Virus record (IMG/VR): IMGVR_UViG_2534681762_000007
Reading direction: 5' to 3' (one strand)
Length of the DNA: 31,920 bases
Source: a virus
Lineage: Duplodnaviria > Heunggongvirae > Uroviricota > Caudoviricetes
Below the pieces are notes generated by a model. That model was given only the letters and a program-made list of their open reading frames with translations, was not told the origin of the DNA and did no database searches. The position numbers were made by a program, and so were the translations under genes. Shown here piece after piece: positions 3,752 to 12,103 of this stretch (the first letter of the stretch is position 1; the number at the start of each line of letters is the position of its first letter).

Positions 3752-4180
3752 TTATTCAATATCTATTCCTGTAATATCTTTTATTTTTTTTCTTGCAAAG
3801 CCTTTTGCTAGTGATTTTGAAACACTCATAAGAGTACTAATCCCCTCATCCTTAAAGTTTGTTTTTATAGCTTGCCAGACCTCCTTTTGACGTAAGTCAG
3901 CAATAAAATCATGCCCTCTTGCTGTCAACCTCAGTGGTACTTCGATCCAACTATATTCAACACCTTCCCCTAACTCGTTGGACATTATATGACCGAACCC
4001 AGGTTTTCCATCAACCCTAACTATTAATTCGTAGTCACATAATAATCGCATATGGAAAATAAAATTTTGGTCATATCTATTAAAGCCATTATCCTCTAGT
4101 TCACTAAGCATCGTGTCAGGGCCATAAGTTTTTTCGAATGCGATAAGTAGATCTTTTAGATATTGCTGGTCTAATTTCAT
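3752..4180 (-). CDS. Hypothetical 142-aa cytoplasmic protein in AT-rich int-proximal accessory cassette
   Basis: Clean ORF MKLDQQYLKDLLIAFEKTYGPDTMLSELEDNGF... with GGAGG Shine-Dalgarno about 6 nt upstream of ATG; no homolog recognised by eye. Confidence 0.6.
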   Translation of the reverse strand: MKLDQQYLKDLLIAFEKTYGPDTMLSELEDNGFNRYDQNFIFHMRLLCDYELIVRVDGKPGFGHIMSNELGEGVEYSWIEVPLRLTARGHDFIADLRQKEVWQAIKTNFKDEGISTLMSVSKSLAKGFARKKIKDITGIDIE

Positions 4181-4840
4181 TGCCGCCTCCGTGACATGTC
4201 ACAGAGATTTATATCATTAATTTTGTTTCGTGCCAGCCTTTGGTCACCCAGTATTGTGAGTCACCATTACACGGGCATGAATTAACAGGAACTCTCTCGC
4301 CGCACTTACGGCAACGTTTTCTGCTAATCGATTTTATACGCCAGCGCACACGTGCATCATCCTGGCGGCTCAGTAACGCTATGTACTCACCAAACTCGTA
4401 AGGCGCACGCCTGAAGCGGCGCGTGGCTCAGTTACGCTCCAGCATTTCAATTTCCTGAGCATCAAGTACAAGCTCCAGCTTACGCATACCGGATGATGCT
4501 TGCTTGGCTCTCTGATCGGCTTTGCGCTCTGCTGCTGATTTAGTCATTCTGCTTTTCCTGCATCAGGAGAAAGACAATCATGGCGGCGCGGATACTTCCG
4601 GTATCTTTTTACGCGATATTACCCTTCAATGACACATACAAGAAGACAGCCATCAGCAGGAATGAGTGAGGAATCGACAACCAGTAACGCTTAATTATCT
4701 ATAGTGTCGTATTTGCTTCATAAAATATGGCGAATAACACAAAGCCCGCAGCAGCTCATTGTGCGGACTTTTCTTATACTTACTTCCTGGAGATAATTCT
4801 ATGGAGGCATTAAATTAATGCTGTCATTGGTAATATCATA

Positions 4841-5455
4841 TTATCTAAAAGTCTTTCCACTTTTAACGTCTAGATATATTCTGTTCGACAACGTCATTCC
4901 TCCGCAATATGTGAAATAGATGTTTTCACCCTTATTGCTTGATGCCATCCACCCTCCAACTTCCTTAAAATCGCTCTCCGTGCAGACACCTTCACTTATT
5001 AACTTCCTAGCTGCCGAAGAAAACTCTTTTTTGTATATACGGTAGTCATCAGATCCTTTGATTAAGGTATCATTTCTGCTCGCATTTTCAGCAGGATCTG
5101 ATGGCCTTTCACTGCTAAGATCACTAAGTTTAACCCATTCTGAAAACTTGCCATTAACGATTCCGTTTTTTCTTGTGCAGGATTTATTACCTTCTTTAAT
5201 ATATTCGCTTTCCCCTCCCACACATGAGGCTGAATATGGCTCAGTTATACGAACCCATTCACCTTTTTTTTCTAGAAAATCTACGCCTTCCCTGAAAAAT
5301 AGTTTCCCAGCCACTCCACATTTACTTGAAGGGCAGGTATGTCTTTCCGTTCGATCAACAACAACCCAAAGTTTTGATTCATTTTTTGCCATTGCCGATG
5401 GTATTTGAGATGAGACAATTAACGTAAGCCCTAAAATTAGTGTTGATTTTTTCAT
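4841..5455 (-). CDS. Hypothetical secreted Cys-containing 204-aa protein (signal peptide, no lipobox)
   Basis: N-terminus MKKSTLILGLTLIVSSQIPSAMA-KNE is a classic Sec signal peptide; AAGGAAAT Shine-Dalgarno before ATG at 5455; six Cys in mature part; AT-rich. Confidence 0.65.
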   Translation of the reverse strand: MKKSTLILGLTLIVSSQIPSAMAKNESKLWVVVDRTERHTCPSSKCGVAGKLFFREGVDFLEKKGEWVRITEPYSASCVGGESEYIKEGNKSCTRKNGIVNGKFSEWVKLSDLSSERPSDPAENASRNDTLIKGSDDYRIYKKEFSSAARKLISEGVCTESDFKEVGGWMASSNKGENIYFTYCGGMTLSNRIYLDVKSGKTFR

Positions 5456-7640: not shown

Positions 7641-8422
7641 GCTGCCACCTTCTGCTCAGTGGCTTTCTGTTTCAGGAATCCAAGAGCTTTCACTGCTTCG
7701 GCCTGTGTCAGTTCTGACGATGCGCGAATGTCGCGGCGAAATATCTGGGAACAGAGCGGCAATAAGTCGTCATCCCATGTTTTATCCAGGGCGATCAGCA
7801 GAGTGTTAATCTCCTGCATGGTTTCATCGTTAACCGGAGTGATGTCGCGTTCCGGCTGACGTTCTGCAGTGTATGCGGTATTTTCGACAATGCGCTCGGC
7901 TTCATCCTTGTCATAGATACCAGCAAATCCGAAGGCGAGACGGGCACACTGAATCATGGCTTTATGCCGTAACATCCGTTTGGGATGCGACTGCCACGGC
8001 CCCGTGATTTCTCTGCCTTCGCGGGTTTTGAATGGTTCGCGGCGGCATTCATCCATCCACTCGGTAACGCAGATCGGATGATTACGGTCCTTGCGGTAAA
8101 TCCGGCATGTACATGATTCATTGTCCTGCTCAAAGTCCATGCCATCAAACTGCTGGTTTTCATTGATGATACGGGACCAGCCATCAACGCCCACCACCGG
8201 AACGATGCCGTTCTGCTTATCAGGGAAGGCGTAAATTTCTTTCGTCCACGGATTAAGGCCGTACTGGTTGGCGACGATCAACAATGCGATGAACTGCGCA
8301 TCGCTGGCATCACCTTTAAATGCCGTCTGGCGAAGAGTGGTGATCAGTTCCTGTGGGTCGACAGAATCCATGCCGACACGTTCAGCCAGCTTCCCTGCCA
8401 GCGTTGCGAGTGCTGTACTCAT
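7637..8422 (-). CDS. bet: Lambda Bet (Red-beta single-strand annealing protein)
   Basis: 261-aa [69 protein letters not shown]... matches lambda Bet; overlaps exo start by 4 nt. Confidence 0.97.
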
Positions 8423-8427
8423 CCGTT

Positions 8428-8724
8428 TTATACCTCTGAATCAATATCAACCTGGTGGTGAGCAATGGTTTCAACCATGTACTGGATGTGTTCTGCCATG
8501 CGCTCCTGAAACTCAACATCGTCATCAAACGCACGGGTAATGGCTTTTTTGCTGGCCCCGTGGCGTTGCAAATGATCGATGCATAGCGATTCAAACAGGT
8601 GCTGGGGCAGGCCTTTTTCCATGTCGTCTGCCAGTTCTGCCTCTTTCTCTTCACGGGCGATCTGCTGGTAGTGACGCGCCCAGCTCTGAGCCTCAAGACG
8701 ATCCTGAATGTAATAAGCGTTCAT
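8428..8724 (-). CDS. gam: Lambda Gam (RecBCD inhibitor), 98-aa short form
   Basis: [60 protein letters not shown]... matches lambda GamS; the upstream GamL-type extension is not in frame here. Confidence 0.93.
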
Positions 8725-8799
8725 GGCTGACCTCCTGAAAATGGCTGTGAAAATATCGCCCGCGAAATGCCAGGCTGATTAGGAAAACAGGAAAGGGGA

Positions 8800-9090
8800 T
8801 TAGTGATTCAGGCCGTTACCGCGTCCGTCGAGAAAAACTTCCACGAGCAAATCACGGGTATAAGTGCGCTCGATGCCGCGATGCAGATAAAGCCGTCCGC
8901 GTAAATTAGCTGATGCAGTCCAGGTACCATCTTTGTGTTTGACCAGCATTCCTGGCATGACCGCGCCGCGATTAACGGTCTGCGTTCCGTAATGTTGATG
9001 AACCATAAAAACTCCTGCCCGTAAGCTGGGCTGCTGAACATATAAAGACTTCTGCGCGTATTCAGGCGGTGGATGGCCGCCGGTTGTCAT
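8800..9090 (-). CDS. Hypothetical 96-aa protein occupying the kil/cIII position upstream of gam
   Basis: [45 protein letters not shown]... with GAGG about 10 nt upstream of ATG at 9090; the 136-aa track ORF is the same frame from a TTG with no RBS. Confidence 0.5.
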
Positions 9091-9283
9091 AACTAAGCCG
9101 CCTCGTTGAAGCGACTGAGGTATGAAGTGTTGAGTTGATTTCAGCTGGTCACACCGACGTTCACGCGTCCGCTTCACCCCTCGCACTTCCCGTAGCCTGC
9201 TGAAATTCAAGCTGCGGATCTAAGCGGTCATCGCAACGGTGAATCAGGTGGTTGCCGTATCGTTGTGTTGTTGCGACATGGTG

Positions 9284-9327
9284 ATAATAGCTATTGCTAT
9301 TGGTGATATCAATACTTATAGCTATTG
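9284..9327 (-). promoter_or_regulatory. PL-like sigma70 promoter with flanking operator palindromes (OL)
   Basis: On minus strand: -35 TTGATA (9312..9307), 17-bp spacer, -10 TATTAT (9289..9284); palindrome AATAGCTATT (9286..9295) overlaps the -10, ATAGCTAT (9318..9325) lies just upstream of the -35; 9-mer TTGCTATTG (9294..9302) recurs in OR. Confidence 0.5.
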
Positions 9328-9453
9328 ATTGATGTGTTTTGATATTAACTGTTTGATAGCAAAAAGAATTAATTTTGTGACTTGCATCGCATAGCGATAA
9401 CTGAAGGGAGGTTGTGGTGGTTTTTCGAACGGTTTGTGTGATGAGGGGAGGGG

Positions 9454-9483
9454 ACAAAAGAAAACCCGGCACGGTGGCCGGGT
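9454..9483 (-). terminator. Intrinsic terminator ending the repressor-side transcript (tImm-like)
   Basis: Stem CCCGGC / GCCGGG (9465..9470 and 9477..9482) with minus-strand T-tract TTTTCTTTT; begins 5 nt after the stop of the 313-aa ORF. Confidence 0.6.
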
Positions 9484-9487
9484 ATCT

Positions 9488-10429
9488 TTATTCGAATGGA
9501 AGATCTATTTGCCTTTGAGGATTCAACTGTTTTTTTACATGCTCAATTTCGAATATGGTTTTTATGGCATCTCCGATCATATATTGAGTTACTTTTAAAT
9601 CTACAAGTAACATATCACCTTTAGAAAAATTTAAGGTGTTGTTATCAATATCGCTGATGAATTTCTGGTCTTTTATTTCAGCCAAAAAGCTACTGGCACC
9701 ATCAGAAAACCGCCACCGGCTTCCTTCATTGAAGGAAATATTTTTAATTTGAAGGGCTTTCTCTACTGTGTACTCTGAAATTATTGATTCTGCTGGTAGA
9801 TTGACTTTGAAATAATGTGCTTCTTGCTTGTTGATCGTCATGAATGTCAAACCATCATCGACAGTAGAGGCAAAGCTGTCAATGCCTTCCTGCTCCAATG
9901 GCTTACTTATAACTTCTTGTAATGAAGAGCGAAGTTTAATATTTTTATAAAGTTCAATAACGTTACTGTCGTAGATCTCGCTTTCGTCATCAACAAAGAC
10001 TTCGATGTTGCTATCAGGCAAATTGTGTAATTTTTTTATTTTCCTTGGGCCTATCCATTTTATCAGTTGAATTAGGCCTTTGCATATTTTTTCTTTAGAA
10101 CCAGGACAGAGTCCAATAAAAGCAATCAAATTCGCAGCGGCTGTTGCTGAATCGCCGGATAAAAAATCAACAGCCTGTTTGAACCAAGATGTAGATGAGG
10201 CAACCAGATCTATTCCAAATGAGCCAGCTTTAAATGATGCATTGACTTTTACAGAAACAACAGTCTTGTTTCCGTAGAGAGTTTTACCGGCTTCCTCTAA
10301 TGCATCTGATAGTGATAGAAGGGCAGGAGCAAGGTCTCGCACGTTCATTTCATGCGTTTCCAGTGCCGGACCGTCGTATACTATCCTGAACTTCATATCA
10401 TTGGTTTCCGAATTGTTGCCCGCATCCAT
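9488..10429 (-). CDS. Orphan 313-aa protein of unknown function in the rexAB slot (between cI and PL)
   Basis: Long AT-rich ORF; ATG at 10429 preceded by AGGTGA with 8-nt spacer (the track ORF starts 12 nt upstream at a GTG); no motif assignable by eye; terminator immediately downstream. Confidence 0.75.
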   Translation of the reverse strand: MDAGNNSETNDMKFRIVYDGPALETHEMNVRDLAPALLSLSDALEEAGKTLYGNKTVVSVKVNASFKAGSFGIDLVASSTSWFKQAVDFLSGDSATAAANLIAFIGLCPGSKEKICKGLIQLIKWIGPRKIKKLHNLPDSNIEVFVDDESEIYDSNVIELYKNIKLRSSLQEVISKPLEQEGIDSFASTVDDGLTFMTINKQEAHYFKVNLPAESIISEYTVEKALQIKNISFNEGSRWRFSDGASSFLAEIKDQKFISDIDNNTLNFSKGDMLLVDLKVTQYMIGDAIKTIFEIEHVKKQLNPQRQIDLPFE

Positions 10430-10502
10430 TATGGCATTCACCTGATCACATATACAGTTAATTTACGATATTGTCTTAAATCTTAAAACTTCTATTGTAT
10501 GG

Positions 10503-11195
10503 CTACCCATGCTTCCTATACGTCTGCGGCATGCTCCCAATAACCTTACCGAAGATGAACACCCGGTTCATCTCGTCTTTCTCGATCGGGTCCCACGGCG
10601 AGTAGCTCTTGTTATCAGAGATAACCAGCAGCTTATCCTTCATCATTTGCAGACGCTTTACATGGGCTGTGTCGTCGTACAGAAACGCATAGATACCATC
10701 ACCGTCGAAAGATTTAACAGTGATATCAACGAACAGAAGATCACCTGGTTCGATCGTTCCTGACATGCTGTCACCACGTACGTTAATGATGCGGATATTT
10801 TCTGCCTTCCTGCCATCGAACATGTGACGAGCATCGTCAAACGAGTACTCAACCGAGCGTAGAACTTCTACAAACTCACGGTTGATGACTCCCGGCCCGG
10901 CACTCACTTCTATATCAAGAACGTCAATCTTGAAGTATTTGGGATGGTTGGCAGTAGGCTTCCCTAATTGTTGACCGTCATTTCTCATCGGGCCTATGCC
11001 TGATGAGAGCCACTCTGTTCGAACACCCAATGCATTAGCTATTTCAACAATTTTTGTTGAGCCGCGCGCGTTGCCGCTTGTCAGTCTCCAGATTGTGGGT
11101 TGAGCTACGCCAGACGCCTTTGCAAGAGCGCCTTGAGACATTCCAGATTGTTCCATCGCTAGGTTTAAGCGATCAGCAAGAGTTTCTTTTTTCAT
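10503..11195 (-). CDS. CI-type prophage repressor (N-terminal HTH, C-terminal LexA/S24 autopeptidase domain)
   Basis: HTH region LSQGALAKASGVAQPTIWRL; Ala-Gly cleavage site in VSAGPGV; GDSM serine motif and downstream KRL lysine; divergent from a cro-like gene. Start taken at ATG 11195 (MKKETL); in-frame TTG at 11231 is the alternative. Confidence 0.85.
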   Translation of the reverse strand: MKKETLADRLNLAMEQSGMSQGALAKASGVAQPTIWRLTSGNARGSTKIVEIANALGVRTEWLSSGIGPMRNDGQQLGKPTANHPKYFKIDVLDIEVSAGPGVINREFVEVLRSVEYSFDDARHMFDGRKAENIRIINVRGDSMSGTIEPGDLLFVDITVKSFDGDGIYAFLYDDTAHVKRLQMMKDKLLVISDNKSYSPWDPIEKDEMNRVFIFGKVIGSMPQTYRKHG

Positions 11196-11305
11196 AAGTT
11201 TTAATTTATACGCTTGCGTATTGATGGTCAAAACACGTTTTGCTATTGTTATGATTAATACGCATTGCTATTATTTATTCGTTGCAATACCAATAGGAAT
11301 TGATA
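11196..11305. promoter_or_regulatory. OR region between divergent repressor and cro-like genes (PR/PRM and operators)
   Basis: Plus strand -35 TTGATG (11221..11226), 17-bp spacer, -10 TATTGT (11244..11249) facing the cro-like gene; inverted repeat ATACGC-TT-GCGTAT (11208..11221); TTGCTATTG at 11240..11248 is identical to a 9-mer in the PL region. Confidence 0.55.
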
Positions 11306-11533
11306 ATGACAAATCAAACCATTCAACTCGCAATCAGTATTACAGGTAGTCAAAAACGACTGGCAGATCTATGCGGTGTAGCCCAACCCACTGTTTGGCG
11401 TTGGCTACACGGTGGCGGAATTGATGCCCGCTATGTAATGAAAATTGTCTCAGCCACTGGTGGAAAGATTAAACCAGCAGATATTCGTCCCGACCTCGCA
11501 CCATTGTTTAACGCGAGTAACTCTGCCGCCTAA
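11306..11533 (+). CDS. Cro-like HTH regulator (YdaS/Cro family)
   Basis: 75-aa ORF MTNQTIQLAISITGSQKRLADLCGVAQPTVWRWLHGG...; AGGA Shine-Dalgarno; divergent from the repressor gene. Confidence 0.75.
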   Translation: MTNQTIQLAISITGSQKRLADLCGVAQPTVWRWLHGGGIDARYVMKIVSATGGKIKPADIRPDLAPLFNASNSAA

Positions 11534-11557: not shown

Positions 11558-12103
11558 ATGACTATGCAACCACTTACATACCAACAGACTAGCGGATTTA
11601 GCCCGATTGCGGTGATAAATCGTTCTCAAACAAAACAAGCTCCAGGCCACGAAAAAATCCGTGATGCCGTCCGTGCCTGGTCGGCTGCAGATAATCAGGA
11701 TGTTGTTGCCGCACTCATTGTGAATGAGTATCGGGAGCAGGGCGGCGGCACCATCGATTTCCCTGATGATGTCAGCCGTGCACGCCAGAAGCTGTTCCGC
11801 TTCCTCGATAACAAATTCGATTCTGAAAAATACCGAAATAACGTGCGTGAACTGACCCCGGCAATTCTGGCGGTACTACCGCTGGAATATCGCGGCCACC
11901 TGGTTGAGCAGGATAGCTTCATGGCTCGGCTGGCTGAAATGGAAAAGGAACTCAGTGAGGCAAAACAGGCTGTCATTCTCAACGCACCACGCCACCAGAA
12001 ACTGAAGGAGATGAGTGAAGGCATTGTGTCGATGTTTCGTGTGGACCCGGATCTGGCTGGTCCACTGATGGCGATGGTTACCACCATGTTGGGGGCAATA
12101 TGA
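11558..12103 (+). CDS. YdaT-family protein in the CII position
   Basis: 181-aa ORF with NEYREQGGG and LTPAILAVLPLEYR motifs that I recall from Rac prophage YdaT; immediately follows the cro-like gene. Confidence 0.6.
   Translation: MTMQPLTYQQTSGFSPIAVINRSQTKQAPGHEKIRDAVRAWSAADNQDVVAALIVNEYREQGGGTIDFPDDVSRARQKLFRFLDNKFDSEKYRNNVRELTPAILAVLPLEYRGHLVEQDSFMARLAEMEKELSEAKQAVILNAPRHQKLKEMSEGIVSMFRVDPDLAGPLMAMVTTMLGAI

Follow-up and report, generated by a model that had tools for sequence, protein, structure and literature searches.

A candidate phage-exclusion protein of the PDC-S42/LAPAL family encoded in an exchangeable cassette of a prophage immunity region

The Caudoviricetes genome IMGVR_UViG_2534681762_000007 from IMG/VR, whose entire stretch of 31,920 nucleotides (nt) is referred to here as the window, carries, between the gene for a CI-type repressor and the terminator of the immunity region, an open reading frame (ORF) for a 313-amino-acid (aa) protein of the PDC-S42/LAPAL family. 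We estimate, with a probability of roughly 0.55, that this gene encodes a protein that is expressed in lysogens, functions on its own and acts by phage exclusion or abortive infection. Under this scenario, the gene would be a horizontally acquired, single-gene accessory cassette (a 'moron') lodged between the repressor stop codon and the common immunity-region terminator, and its product, a cytoplasmic, stand-alone PDC-S42/LAPAL protein, would shield the lysogen from other phages, by exclusion or by abortive infection. The balance of the evidence likewise tilts, if modestly, towards a defence function of the protein as such, and co-transcription of the gene with the repressor is anatomically plausible. 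The features of the locus that bear on this scenario are the following.

9488..10429, minus strand: the 313-aa ORF (ATG at 10429-10427, stop codon TAA at 9490-9488; the start of the RefSeq coding sequence is identical)
10430..10502, minus strand: leader of 73 nt from the repressor stop codon to the ORF start, part of the cargo cassette
9484..10502: exchangeable cargo cassette of ~1.02 kb, extending from the terminator stem to the repressor stop codon, as defined by junction mapping
10503..11195, minus strand: CI-type prophage repressor (Pfam HTH_3, E = 1.5e-6; Peptidase_S24, E = 1.5e-18)
9455..9483, minus strand: Rho-independent terminator, the tImm equivalent, in the conserved flank and common to all types of slot cargo
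9278..9326, minus strand: operator-bearing OL/PL block of 49 nt, with a PL-like promoter and a repeat of the OR block
11224..11272: OR/PRM-PR operator block in the interval between the repressor and cro, with direct repeat D1 and inverted repeats I1 and I3

The operator blocks and the positions of the genes together yield the order OR - cI - ORF - terminator - OL/PL. This arrangement bears out the proposal of an earlier, sequence-only reading of this DNA that the gene occupies the equivalent of the rexAB slot (cI - cargo - terminator - OL/PL); the ORF, its own Shine-Dalgarno sequence, the nearly adjacent terminator and the PL-like promoter are all present where that reading had placed them. 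The Shine-Dalgarno sequence AGGTGA (10443-10438) lies 8 nt ahead of the ATG, and a GTG at 10441, in the same frame, offers an alternative start. The terminator hairpin (9483-9464), which begins 4-5 nt past the ORF stop codon, was recognised in a terminator scan as six G-C pairs followed by TTTTCTTTT, and its fold of -18.7 kcal/mol (z = -4.7) was matched in stability by none of 200 shuffled sequences. At the threshold of the scans, nothing in the leader resembles a terminator or a promoter; it contains no stable RNA structure (folding z = +0.88), and an Rfam scan of the leader and the spacer yielded no match. Because the cassette sits between the repressor stop codon and the terminator, transcription together with the repressor in lysogens is the most likely mode of expression of the gene.

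The cassette flanks are found in 2,210 of 5,426 complete Escherichia coli genomes, 34 of which carry the PDC-S42 cargo, in all cases on the chromosome and with at least 99% identity. Sampling of the flank-positive genomes revealed other states of the slot, and seven loci representing six states (PDC-S42 cargo, an empty slot and four other types of cargo) were compared for junction mapping. Aligned in pairs, the loci all have their left junction at the terminator stem (window positions 9483-9488) and their right one at the stop codon of the repressor (10503-10507). Given that the homology of the flanks ends at the terminator stem in all compared loci, the terminator belongs to the conserved backbone; cargo placed between the repressor stop codon and this backbone terminator therefore lands inside the repressor transcription unit. 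Of the arguments from structure that the gene is expressed in lysogens, we consider this one to be the strongest.

All sampled cargoes are located on the repressor strand. They include the PDC-M11A/B pair, which consists of a 353-aa protein and an ASCH protein (E = 3e-133 and 7e-52) and is annotated as 'GevT toxin / GevA antitoxin' in phage PhiR47_2; the PDC-M63A/B pair, which consists of a DUF6932 protein and a 310-aa protein; a pair of 87-aa and 147-aa proteins (E. coli locus L105, positions 708-1427); and a single gene for a 337-aa protein (E. coli locus L106, positions 1060-2073). The presence of the PDC-M11 and PDC-M63 defence candidates supports the earlier suggestion that the slot accommodates other exclusion-type cargo. 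The 337-aa protein and the 87-aa/147-aa pair, for which no Pfam or PADLOC match was detected, represent fresh candidates; the remaining occupants of the slot are defence candidates. An hhalign comparison of the PDC-S42 protein with the other cargo proteins showed them to be unrelated (probability of at most 1.3%), and sister phages that share the same cI are devoid of the PDC-S42 gene. In the empty state (E. coli CCUG 73778, locus L108, positions 638-752), 115 bp separate the junctions. The two termini of this 115-bp segment correspond to those of the PDC-M11/GevTA cassette (ACGC.GTTAGGTAAAGATAT... and ...TTGATAATTTTTAATTGGTA), so the 'empty' slot looks like a remnant of a PDC-M11/GevTA deletion rather than a site that was never occupied.

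The composition of the gene is distinct from that of its surroundings. The GC content of the ORF is 0.379 (0.347 at third codon positions, GC3), compared to 0.472 for cI (GC3 0.510), 0.520 for exo-bet-gam (bet GC3 0.580) and 0.482 for the whole window, so the initial impression that the gene is richer in AT than the flanking repressor and Red genes holds. This AT-rich composition, combined with cassette junctions located exactly at the cI stop codon and the common terminator, supports horizontal acquisition. The notion of a single-gene system is supported as well, inasmuch as one ORF alone is present between the junctions and no downstream partner conserved across genera was found among the homologues. 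The ratio of nonsynonymous to synonymous substitution rates (dN/dS) to the 93%-identical Pseudocitrobacter orthologue is 0.029, with a dS of 1.2, that is, with synonymous sites near saturation. Considering this ratio and the thousands of homologues, the ORF is a real gene rather than a chance occurrence and, judging from these sequence comparisons, a genuine and well-conserved one.

The protein is identical to WP_000338655.1 in RefSeq and is far from being the orphan that the sequence-only reading had assumed: it has matches in three family libraries and relatives in about 5,200 clusters of proteins at 50% identity. The PADLOC profile PDC-S42 (hidden Markov model PDLC05015) matches over its full length (E = 3.2e-86, 287.5 bits; residues 11-312 aligned to positions 3-300 of 302), the NCBIfam profile NF053583 (LAPAL_fam, 'LAPAL motif-containing putative phage structural protein') matches with 270.5 bits against a curated cutoff of 60, and phrog_3243, labelled as function unknown in PHROG, matches with E = 1e-116. 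A Pfam scan of the protein returned only a sub-threshold DUF2004 hit of 13 bits, with neither KilA-N nor BstA_C at E of up to 1, and a sequence-profile search of the PDB gave no meaningful match. An exhaustive profile search over 1.84 billion cluster representatives (clusters at 50% identity) detected 5,210 clusters at E of at most 1e-3 and 1,683 at E of at most 1e-30; the members of the top 150 clusters range in length from 229 to 354 aa, with most at 295-320, and a fused domain is present in none of the 150.

Relatives are present in 302 of ~185,000 species genomes, and the range of hosts includes Enterobacterales, Pseudomonas, Burkholderia, Acinetobacter, Neisseria, methanotrophs, Desulfobacterales and candidate phyla radiation (CPR) bacteria; at 27-33% identity, relatives are found also in temperate phages of Lactobacillus, Listeria and Bifidobacterium. 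Many of the 34 E. coli carriers are Shiga toxin-producing E. coli (STEC) or clinical isolates, and in one E. coli example the gene lies within a lambdoid prophage at the argU/DLP12 site. In one of the carriers, E. coli STEC388 (NZ_CP041425.1), an IS1A element splits the match in two.

Two published predictors, independent of each other, support the standing of the protein as a defence candidate. The scan with defence profiles was run with PADLOC and returned the full-length candidate match and no known system: PDC-S42 is the only PADLOC model that matches at E of up to 10, so none of the models for known systems does. The candidates of this class are 145 'untested phage defence candidates' that were identified through 'guilt-by-embedding' in BREX, DISARM and type I restriction-modification (RM) loci (Payne et al., bioRxiv 10.1101/2024.01.29.577857). 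Independently, WP_000338655.1 appears in Table S5 of the DefensePredictor study as a 'Predicted novel defense gene', with a mean log-odds of 6.42 compared to the stringent cutoff of 4; the same table enters neither homologues among known defence proteins nor a Foldseek match for it (DeWeirdt, Mahoney and Laub, Science 2026, PMC13092281). Given that two public resources have already predicted a defence function for the same protein, the candidate is not new, and its novelty is less than first implied, the exact protein being public as a predicted defence gene. In the literature that we searched, none of the terms PDC-S42, LAPAL, phrog_3243, NF053583, WP_000338655 and GevT is mentioned in a main text.

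So what could such a protein do? An AlphaFold2 (AF2) model built from an alignment of 56 sequences, with a predicted local distance difference test (pLDDT) score of 83.7 and a predicted template modelling (pTM) score of 0.67, suggests the following architecture.

Residues ~12-80: N-terminal β-α-β-β unit with YDGPAL...MxVRDLAPAL, the most conserved motif of the family
Residues ~90-125: uncharged hydrophobic stretch rich in Gly and Ala, followed by a basic cluster; the lowest pLDDT of the model, 51-64
Residues ~130-210: middle α/β domain, very confident in the model
Residues ~215-302: C-terminal oligonucleotide/oligosaccharide-binding (OB) fold, a five-stranded barrel with a helix between β3 and β4, very confident

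The whole protein (~35 kDa) is acidic, with an isoelectric point (pI) of 5.0, and contains neither a signal peptide nor a lipobox; no segment of transmembrane grade was detected in it, the maximum of Kyte-Doolittle hydropathy (KD19) being 1.31. In the N-terminal unit, the signature RDLAPALLSL spans residues 31-40; D19, G20, L23, M28, L33 and P35 are invariant, and the LAPAL residues A34, A36 and L37 nearly so. In the predicted structure, the C-terminal domain is an OB-fold. Its invariant or nearly invariant residues are F233, K238, W239, D243, G244, D254, F257, K270 and D272, and among these, F233, K238, W239, F257 and K270 appear compatible with binding of single-stranded nucleic acid. The R-x5-H and D...E-x-K strings that had been pointed out as weak candidates for catalytic motifs do not fall on conserved positions in the family and are rejected as such motifs.

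A mechanism that would fit this architecture is recognition, by the OB-fold, of a ligand made during infection, which might be single-stranded nucleic acid, replication or recombination intermediates, or a phage protein; the N-terminal LAPAL domain and the hydrophobic Gly-rich hairpin would then act non-enzymatically and block phage development through oligomerisation, sequestration or membrane association. Sensing through the OB-fold specifically is a tentative proposal that we consider, on balance, doubtful. Somewhat more doubtful still is the generalisation that PDC-S42/LAPAL is a new, enzyme-free, single-protein immune module in which an OB-fold sensor is coupled to an undescribed N-terminal 'LAPAL' effector, with the effector working either by triggered oligomerisation or by insertion of the glycine-rich hairpin into the membrane.

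The hydrophobic segment also invites a different view of the mode of action, namely, that the Gly-rich stretch at ~90-125 and the basic cluster anchor the protein to the inner membrane, where it would block DNA entry or depolarise the cell in the manner of superinfection-exclusion proteins; the function would still be defence, with the OB domain no longer in the role of key sensor of replication intermediates. Compatible with this view, 24 of the 56 family members exceed a KD19 of 1.6 in the segment (for example, LVTILGFGGGAVVGLVQLI, with 2.07), small-xxx-small patterns of Gly, Ala and Ser and a conserved KWLxGRK / RKLGGRR flank are present, the confidence of the AF2 model is minimal precisely there, and membrane-type exclusion genes occupy comparable slots, such as sieB in the Rac prophage of E. 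coli K-12. In the protein at hand, however, the segment peaks at a KD of 1.31 and is split by the charged loop PGSKEKICKG into hydrophobic arms of only ~11 residues each, the second of which (118-127) packs against the middle domain in a high-confidence part of the model; the lack of a signal peptide or a lipobox, and of any PADLOC match other than PDC-S42 and hence to a known system, also speaks against a membrane-acting exclusion protein. Because of the low KD value and the charged interruption, membrane association is a minority possibility, and we regard this alternative as unlikely.

Returning to the proposal of a lysogen-expressed defence protein, the genomic contexts of the homologues provide another line of evidence. 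Ten protein clusters were examined for linkage to repressors, with homologues of 39-60% identity and precomputed gene calls. In eight of the ten, the homologue is located directly downstream of a CI-type repressor gene, on the same strand and divergent from cro: in a Rac-like prophage of E. coli, in Salmonella, in two different prophages of Pseudomonas savastanoi, in Halopseudomonas, and in Burkholderia multivorans, B. gladioli and B. cepacia (in the last case, the upstream gene in the repressor position has no Pfam match). The repressors upstream of the homologues are unrelated to one another, and at the equivalent place of the K-12 Rac prophage, ydaG-ydaF-sieB are found instead. The two exceptions are a degraded prophage end in Yersinia and an island in Acinetobacter pittii (loci L004-L009, positions 8001-11067), in which the homologue is accompanied by a HIRAN protein and a BstA_C protein and which is followed by different prophages or other DNA; this island may be a mini defence island.

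Beyond these clusters, the contexts are diverse. In phages of Gram-positive bacteria, the homologue is found within or next to the lysogeny module: in phage A2 of Lactobacillus, it is flanked by the endolysin gene and int, and in a Listeria phage, it ends the operon on the repressor side, before int. One homologue (locus L052) is directly upstream of hsdR, unlike the copy in the window, which belongs to a prophage and not to an RM locus, and another family member adjoins a serine recombinase gene. In Polynucleobacter sp. 86C-FISCH (locus L068, positions 3998-4912), the gene is embedded in a conjugative type IV secretion system (T4SS) operon, with TrbL/VirB6 and a small membrane ORF on one side and VirB8/CagX on the other. 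In the Nitrospinota metagenome-assembled genome CALOCG010000024 (locus L027, positions 3995-4921), a family member is located between carA and carB, in the order pyrB-pyrC-carA-[gene]-carB, with its start overlapping the carA stop codon by 4 nt, an odd site for a mobile accessory gene. In the head modules of Mu-like prophages, in the T4SS and carAB operons and beside hsdR, the gene takes the form of an AT-rich insert, in keeping with a stand-alone nature.

This breadth is relevant to the possibility that the gene is an accessory of prophage maintenance or of the lysogeny switch, which would modulate induction or handle and protect the single-stranded DNA (ssDNA) of its own phage. Such a role would agree with a site in the immunity operon that adjoins the Red-type recombination genes, with an OB-fold of the SSB/RPA type and with the fact that Pfam and fold searches revealed no recognisable toxic effector. 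Yet the family extends far beyond lambdoid switches, to the head modules of Mu-like prophages, a T4SS operon, hsdR and carAB, and both defence predictors flag the protein. Furthermore, phages that share this repressor often have unrelated cargo in the slot or nothing at all, so the gene is dispensable for the switch. An accessory of this kind is, in our estimate, improbable.

Several observations weigh against the interpretation of the gene as a lysogen-expressed defence gene and have to be set beside the evidence above. On the side of the predictions, PDC-S42 is one of the 145 candidates that Payne et al. themselves call untested (bioRxiv 10.1101/2024.01.29.577857), WP_000338655.1 is absent from Table S6, which holds the 94 transcription units picked for testing, and the overall validation rate of DefensePredictor is 45% (PMC13092281). 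On the side of the protein, the OB domain is acidic, with a pI of ~5, which is atypical of ssDNA binders, and protein-binding OB domains of the RPA70N type are among the best Foldseek matches, so that the ligand of the domain is ambiguous. On the side of the genomes, a crude, ORF-based census of neighbours, distorted by shadow ORFs in high-GC genomes, found a same-strand HTH/S24 gene upstream in only ~10-15% of 73 species-level loci, which makes the family look like promiscuous cargo that is not strictly linked to immunity regions. Finally, in Mu-like prophages (locus L077, positions 3971-4915, as well as L038 and L094), the gene lies within the late head operon, in the same-strand order Portal_Mu - F - G (Phage_tail_S) - [gene] - I protease - gpT, and no promoter of its own was detected in L077 at the scan threshold.

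The Mu-like arrangement, together with the wording 'putative phage structural protein' in the name of NF053583, is what could be taken to indicate a virion structural or morphogenesis protein. The context probably explains the name. However, portal, F, G, I and T make up a full Mu-like head module even when the gene is left aside, and the insert in L077 is compositionally foreign, with a GC content of 0.48 compared to 0.60-0.65 in its neighbours, and for these two reasons we reject the structural interpretation, which the genomic contexts largely refute. In addition, here and in at least eight other prophage lineages the gene belongs to the immunity region and has the orientation of the repressor; sister phages that share the cI do without it; non-phage contexts (T4SS, hsdR, carAB) exist; and fold searches detected no capsid, tail or scaffold fold. 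A structural role in the virion is thus highly improbable.

The validation rate, for its part, leaves room for a lysogenic-conversion factor unrelated to phages, acting for instance in stress tolerance or virulence, or for selfish cargo that brings no benefit, since about half of the predicted defence transcription units fail validation (PMC13092281). The gene is moron-like, AT-rich and sporadic in E. coli (34 of 5,426 genomes), with many STEC or clinical carriers, and Owen et al. (PMC8585504) cite earlier work that ties bstA, which occupies an analogous slot, to virulence phenotypes. Conversely, the protein is cytoplasmic and has no secretion signal, the family is wide in environmental, non-pathogenic lineages (Methylobacter, Desulfobacterales, CPR bacteria), the strong purifying selection speaks against junk, and some of the contexts, with hsdR or a BstA_C protein as neighbours, belong to the realm of RM and defence. 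A conversion factor or selfish cargo therefore seems to us an unlikely solution, and a lysogen-expressed exclusion or abortive-infection protein appears to accommodate the available facts best.

The remainder of the immunity region completes the picture of the locus. The repressor, labelled in RefSeq as an XRE family regulator, starts at ATG 11195 in RefSeq and at TTG 11231 in the longest ORF, and ends with TAG at 10505-10503; a cro-like helix-turn-helix (HTH) gene (11300-11533) is divergent from it. Near OR, divergent promoter-like sites are found at 11231-11203 (minus strand) and 11246-11274 (plus strand). The OL/PL block and the OR block are 71% identical over 49 nt and contain internal inverted repeats, and the PL-like promoter, TTGATA-17-TATTAT at 9312-9284 in the promoter scan, lies beyond the terminator. 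On the PL-proximal side of the terminator, there is a purine-rich tract, GATGAGGGGAGGGGACAAAAG on the plus strand (9440-9463), that varies slightly between loci. Between PL and a kil-like gene (8800-9006), no N-type antiterminator ORF is annotated and ~280 nt (9006-9284) are untranslated. The gene at the cII position (11558-12103) carries conflicting names in the databases: the same YdaT-domain gene is 'toxin YdaT domain-containing' in RefSeq and 'CII-like transcriptional activator' in phage 4A7.

What the present analysis adds to the published predictions is the assignment of the OB-fold, the exact junctions of the cassette, the multi-state hotspot with three PDC cargoes, the linkage to repressors across genera and the rebuttal of the 'structural' database name. 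If the defence scenario is correct, PDC-S42/LAPAL would be a compact, one-gene, non-enzymatic defence protein representing a very large and broad family without a characterised member, borne by prophages at the very site used for lysogen-expressed cargo. On the more far-reaching and more doubtful view of a new immune module, it would rank among the most widespread uncharacterised ones, spanning Proteobacteria, CPR bacteria and Gram-positive phages, and its place in the repressor operon would couple protection from other phages to lysogeny. The slot itself is a natural experiment, with one repressor and one terminator, at least six interchangeable states in E. coli and three cargoes independently flagged as defence candidates, and thus a cheap place for mining and testing systems under native regulation. 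Given that the gene is found in prophages of STEC and clinical E. coli, it could affect the host range in phage therapy.

How does this cassette compare with systems already described? In terms of sequence, the protein is simply a full-length member of PDC-S42 / NF053583 / PHROG 3243, encoded by a single gene for ~300 aa, with the RDLAPAL motif and no difference in sequence, although the 'structural protein' wording of NCBIfam is contradicted by the genomic contexts of the homologues. The OB-fold domain resembles those of the ssDNA-binding proteins SSB, RPA, PriB and Rim1, at 5-16% identity and with no Pfam SSB match; unlike in these proteins, it is acidic and embedded in a three-domain protein, and its binding to DNA is putative. 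The other cargoes of the slot, PDC-M11 (GevT/GevA) and PDC-M63 (the DUF6932 pair), share the identical cassette junctions, the repressor strand and the status of defence candidates but are two-gene systems of unrelated proteins. In the K-12 Rac prophage, sieB is an exclusion gene as well, but is on the opposite strand. In lambda, rexA and rexB lie between cI and tImm, PRM drives their transcription in lysogens and their products exclude other phages; RexAB consists of two proteins, the sensor RexA and the polytopic membrane channel RexB. The likeness to RexAB is in the slot, from cI to the immunity terminator and upstream of OL/PL, whereas the product here is one soluble-looking protein that matches no PADLOC model of a known system and contains no convincing transmembrane segment. 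BstA of prophage BTP1 and its relatives is highly expressed in lysogeny and provokes abortive infection, acting where phage DNA is being replicated (Owen et al. 2021, PMC8585504); it contains an N-terminal KilA-N domain and a BstA_C domain, and an aba self-immunity DNA element overlaps the start of its gene (PMC8585504). There is no sequence or domain relationship between the two proteins, a C-terminal OB-fold being present here instead of KilA-N and BstA_C. Nevertheless, in both cases a lone gene follows the prophage repressor and has a terminator of its own, and both proteins combine a domain of a nucleic-acid-binding type (for the protein in the window, binding is predicted from the model) with a domain of uncharacterised function. 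By analogy of locus design, BstA is the closest validated analogue of the PDC-S42 cassette.

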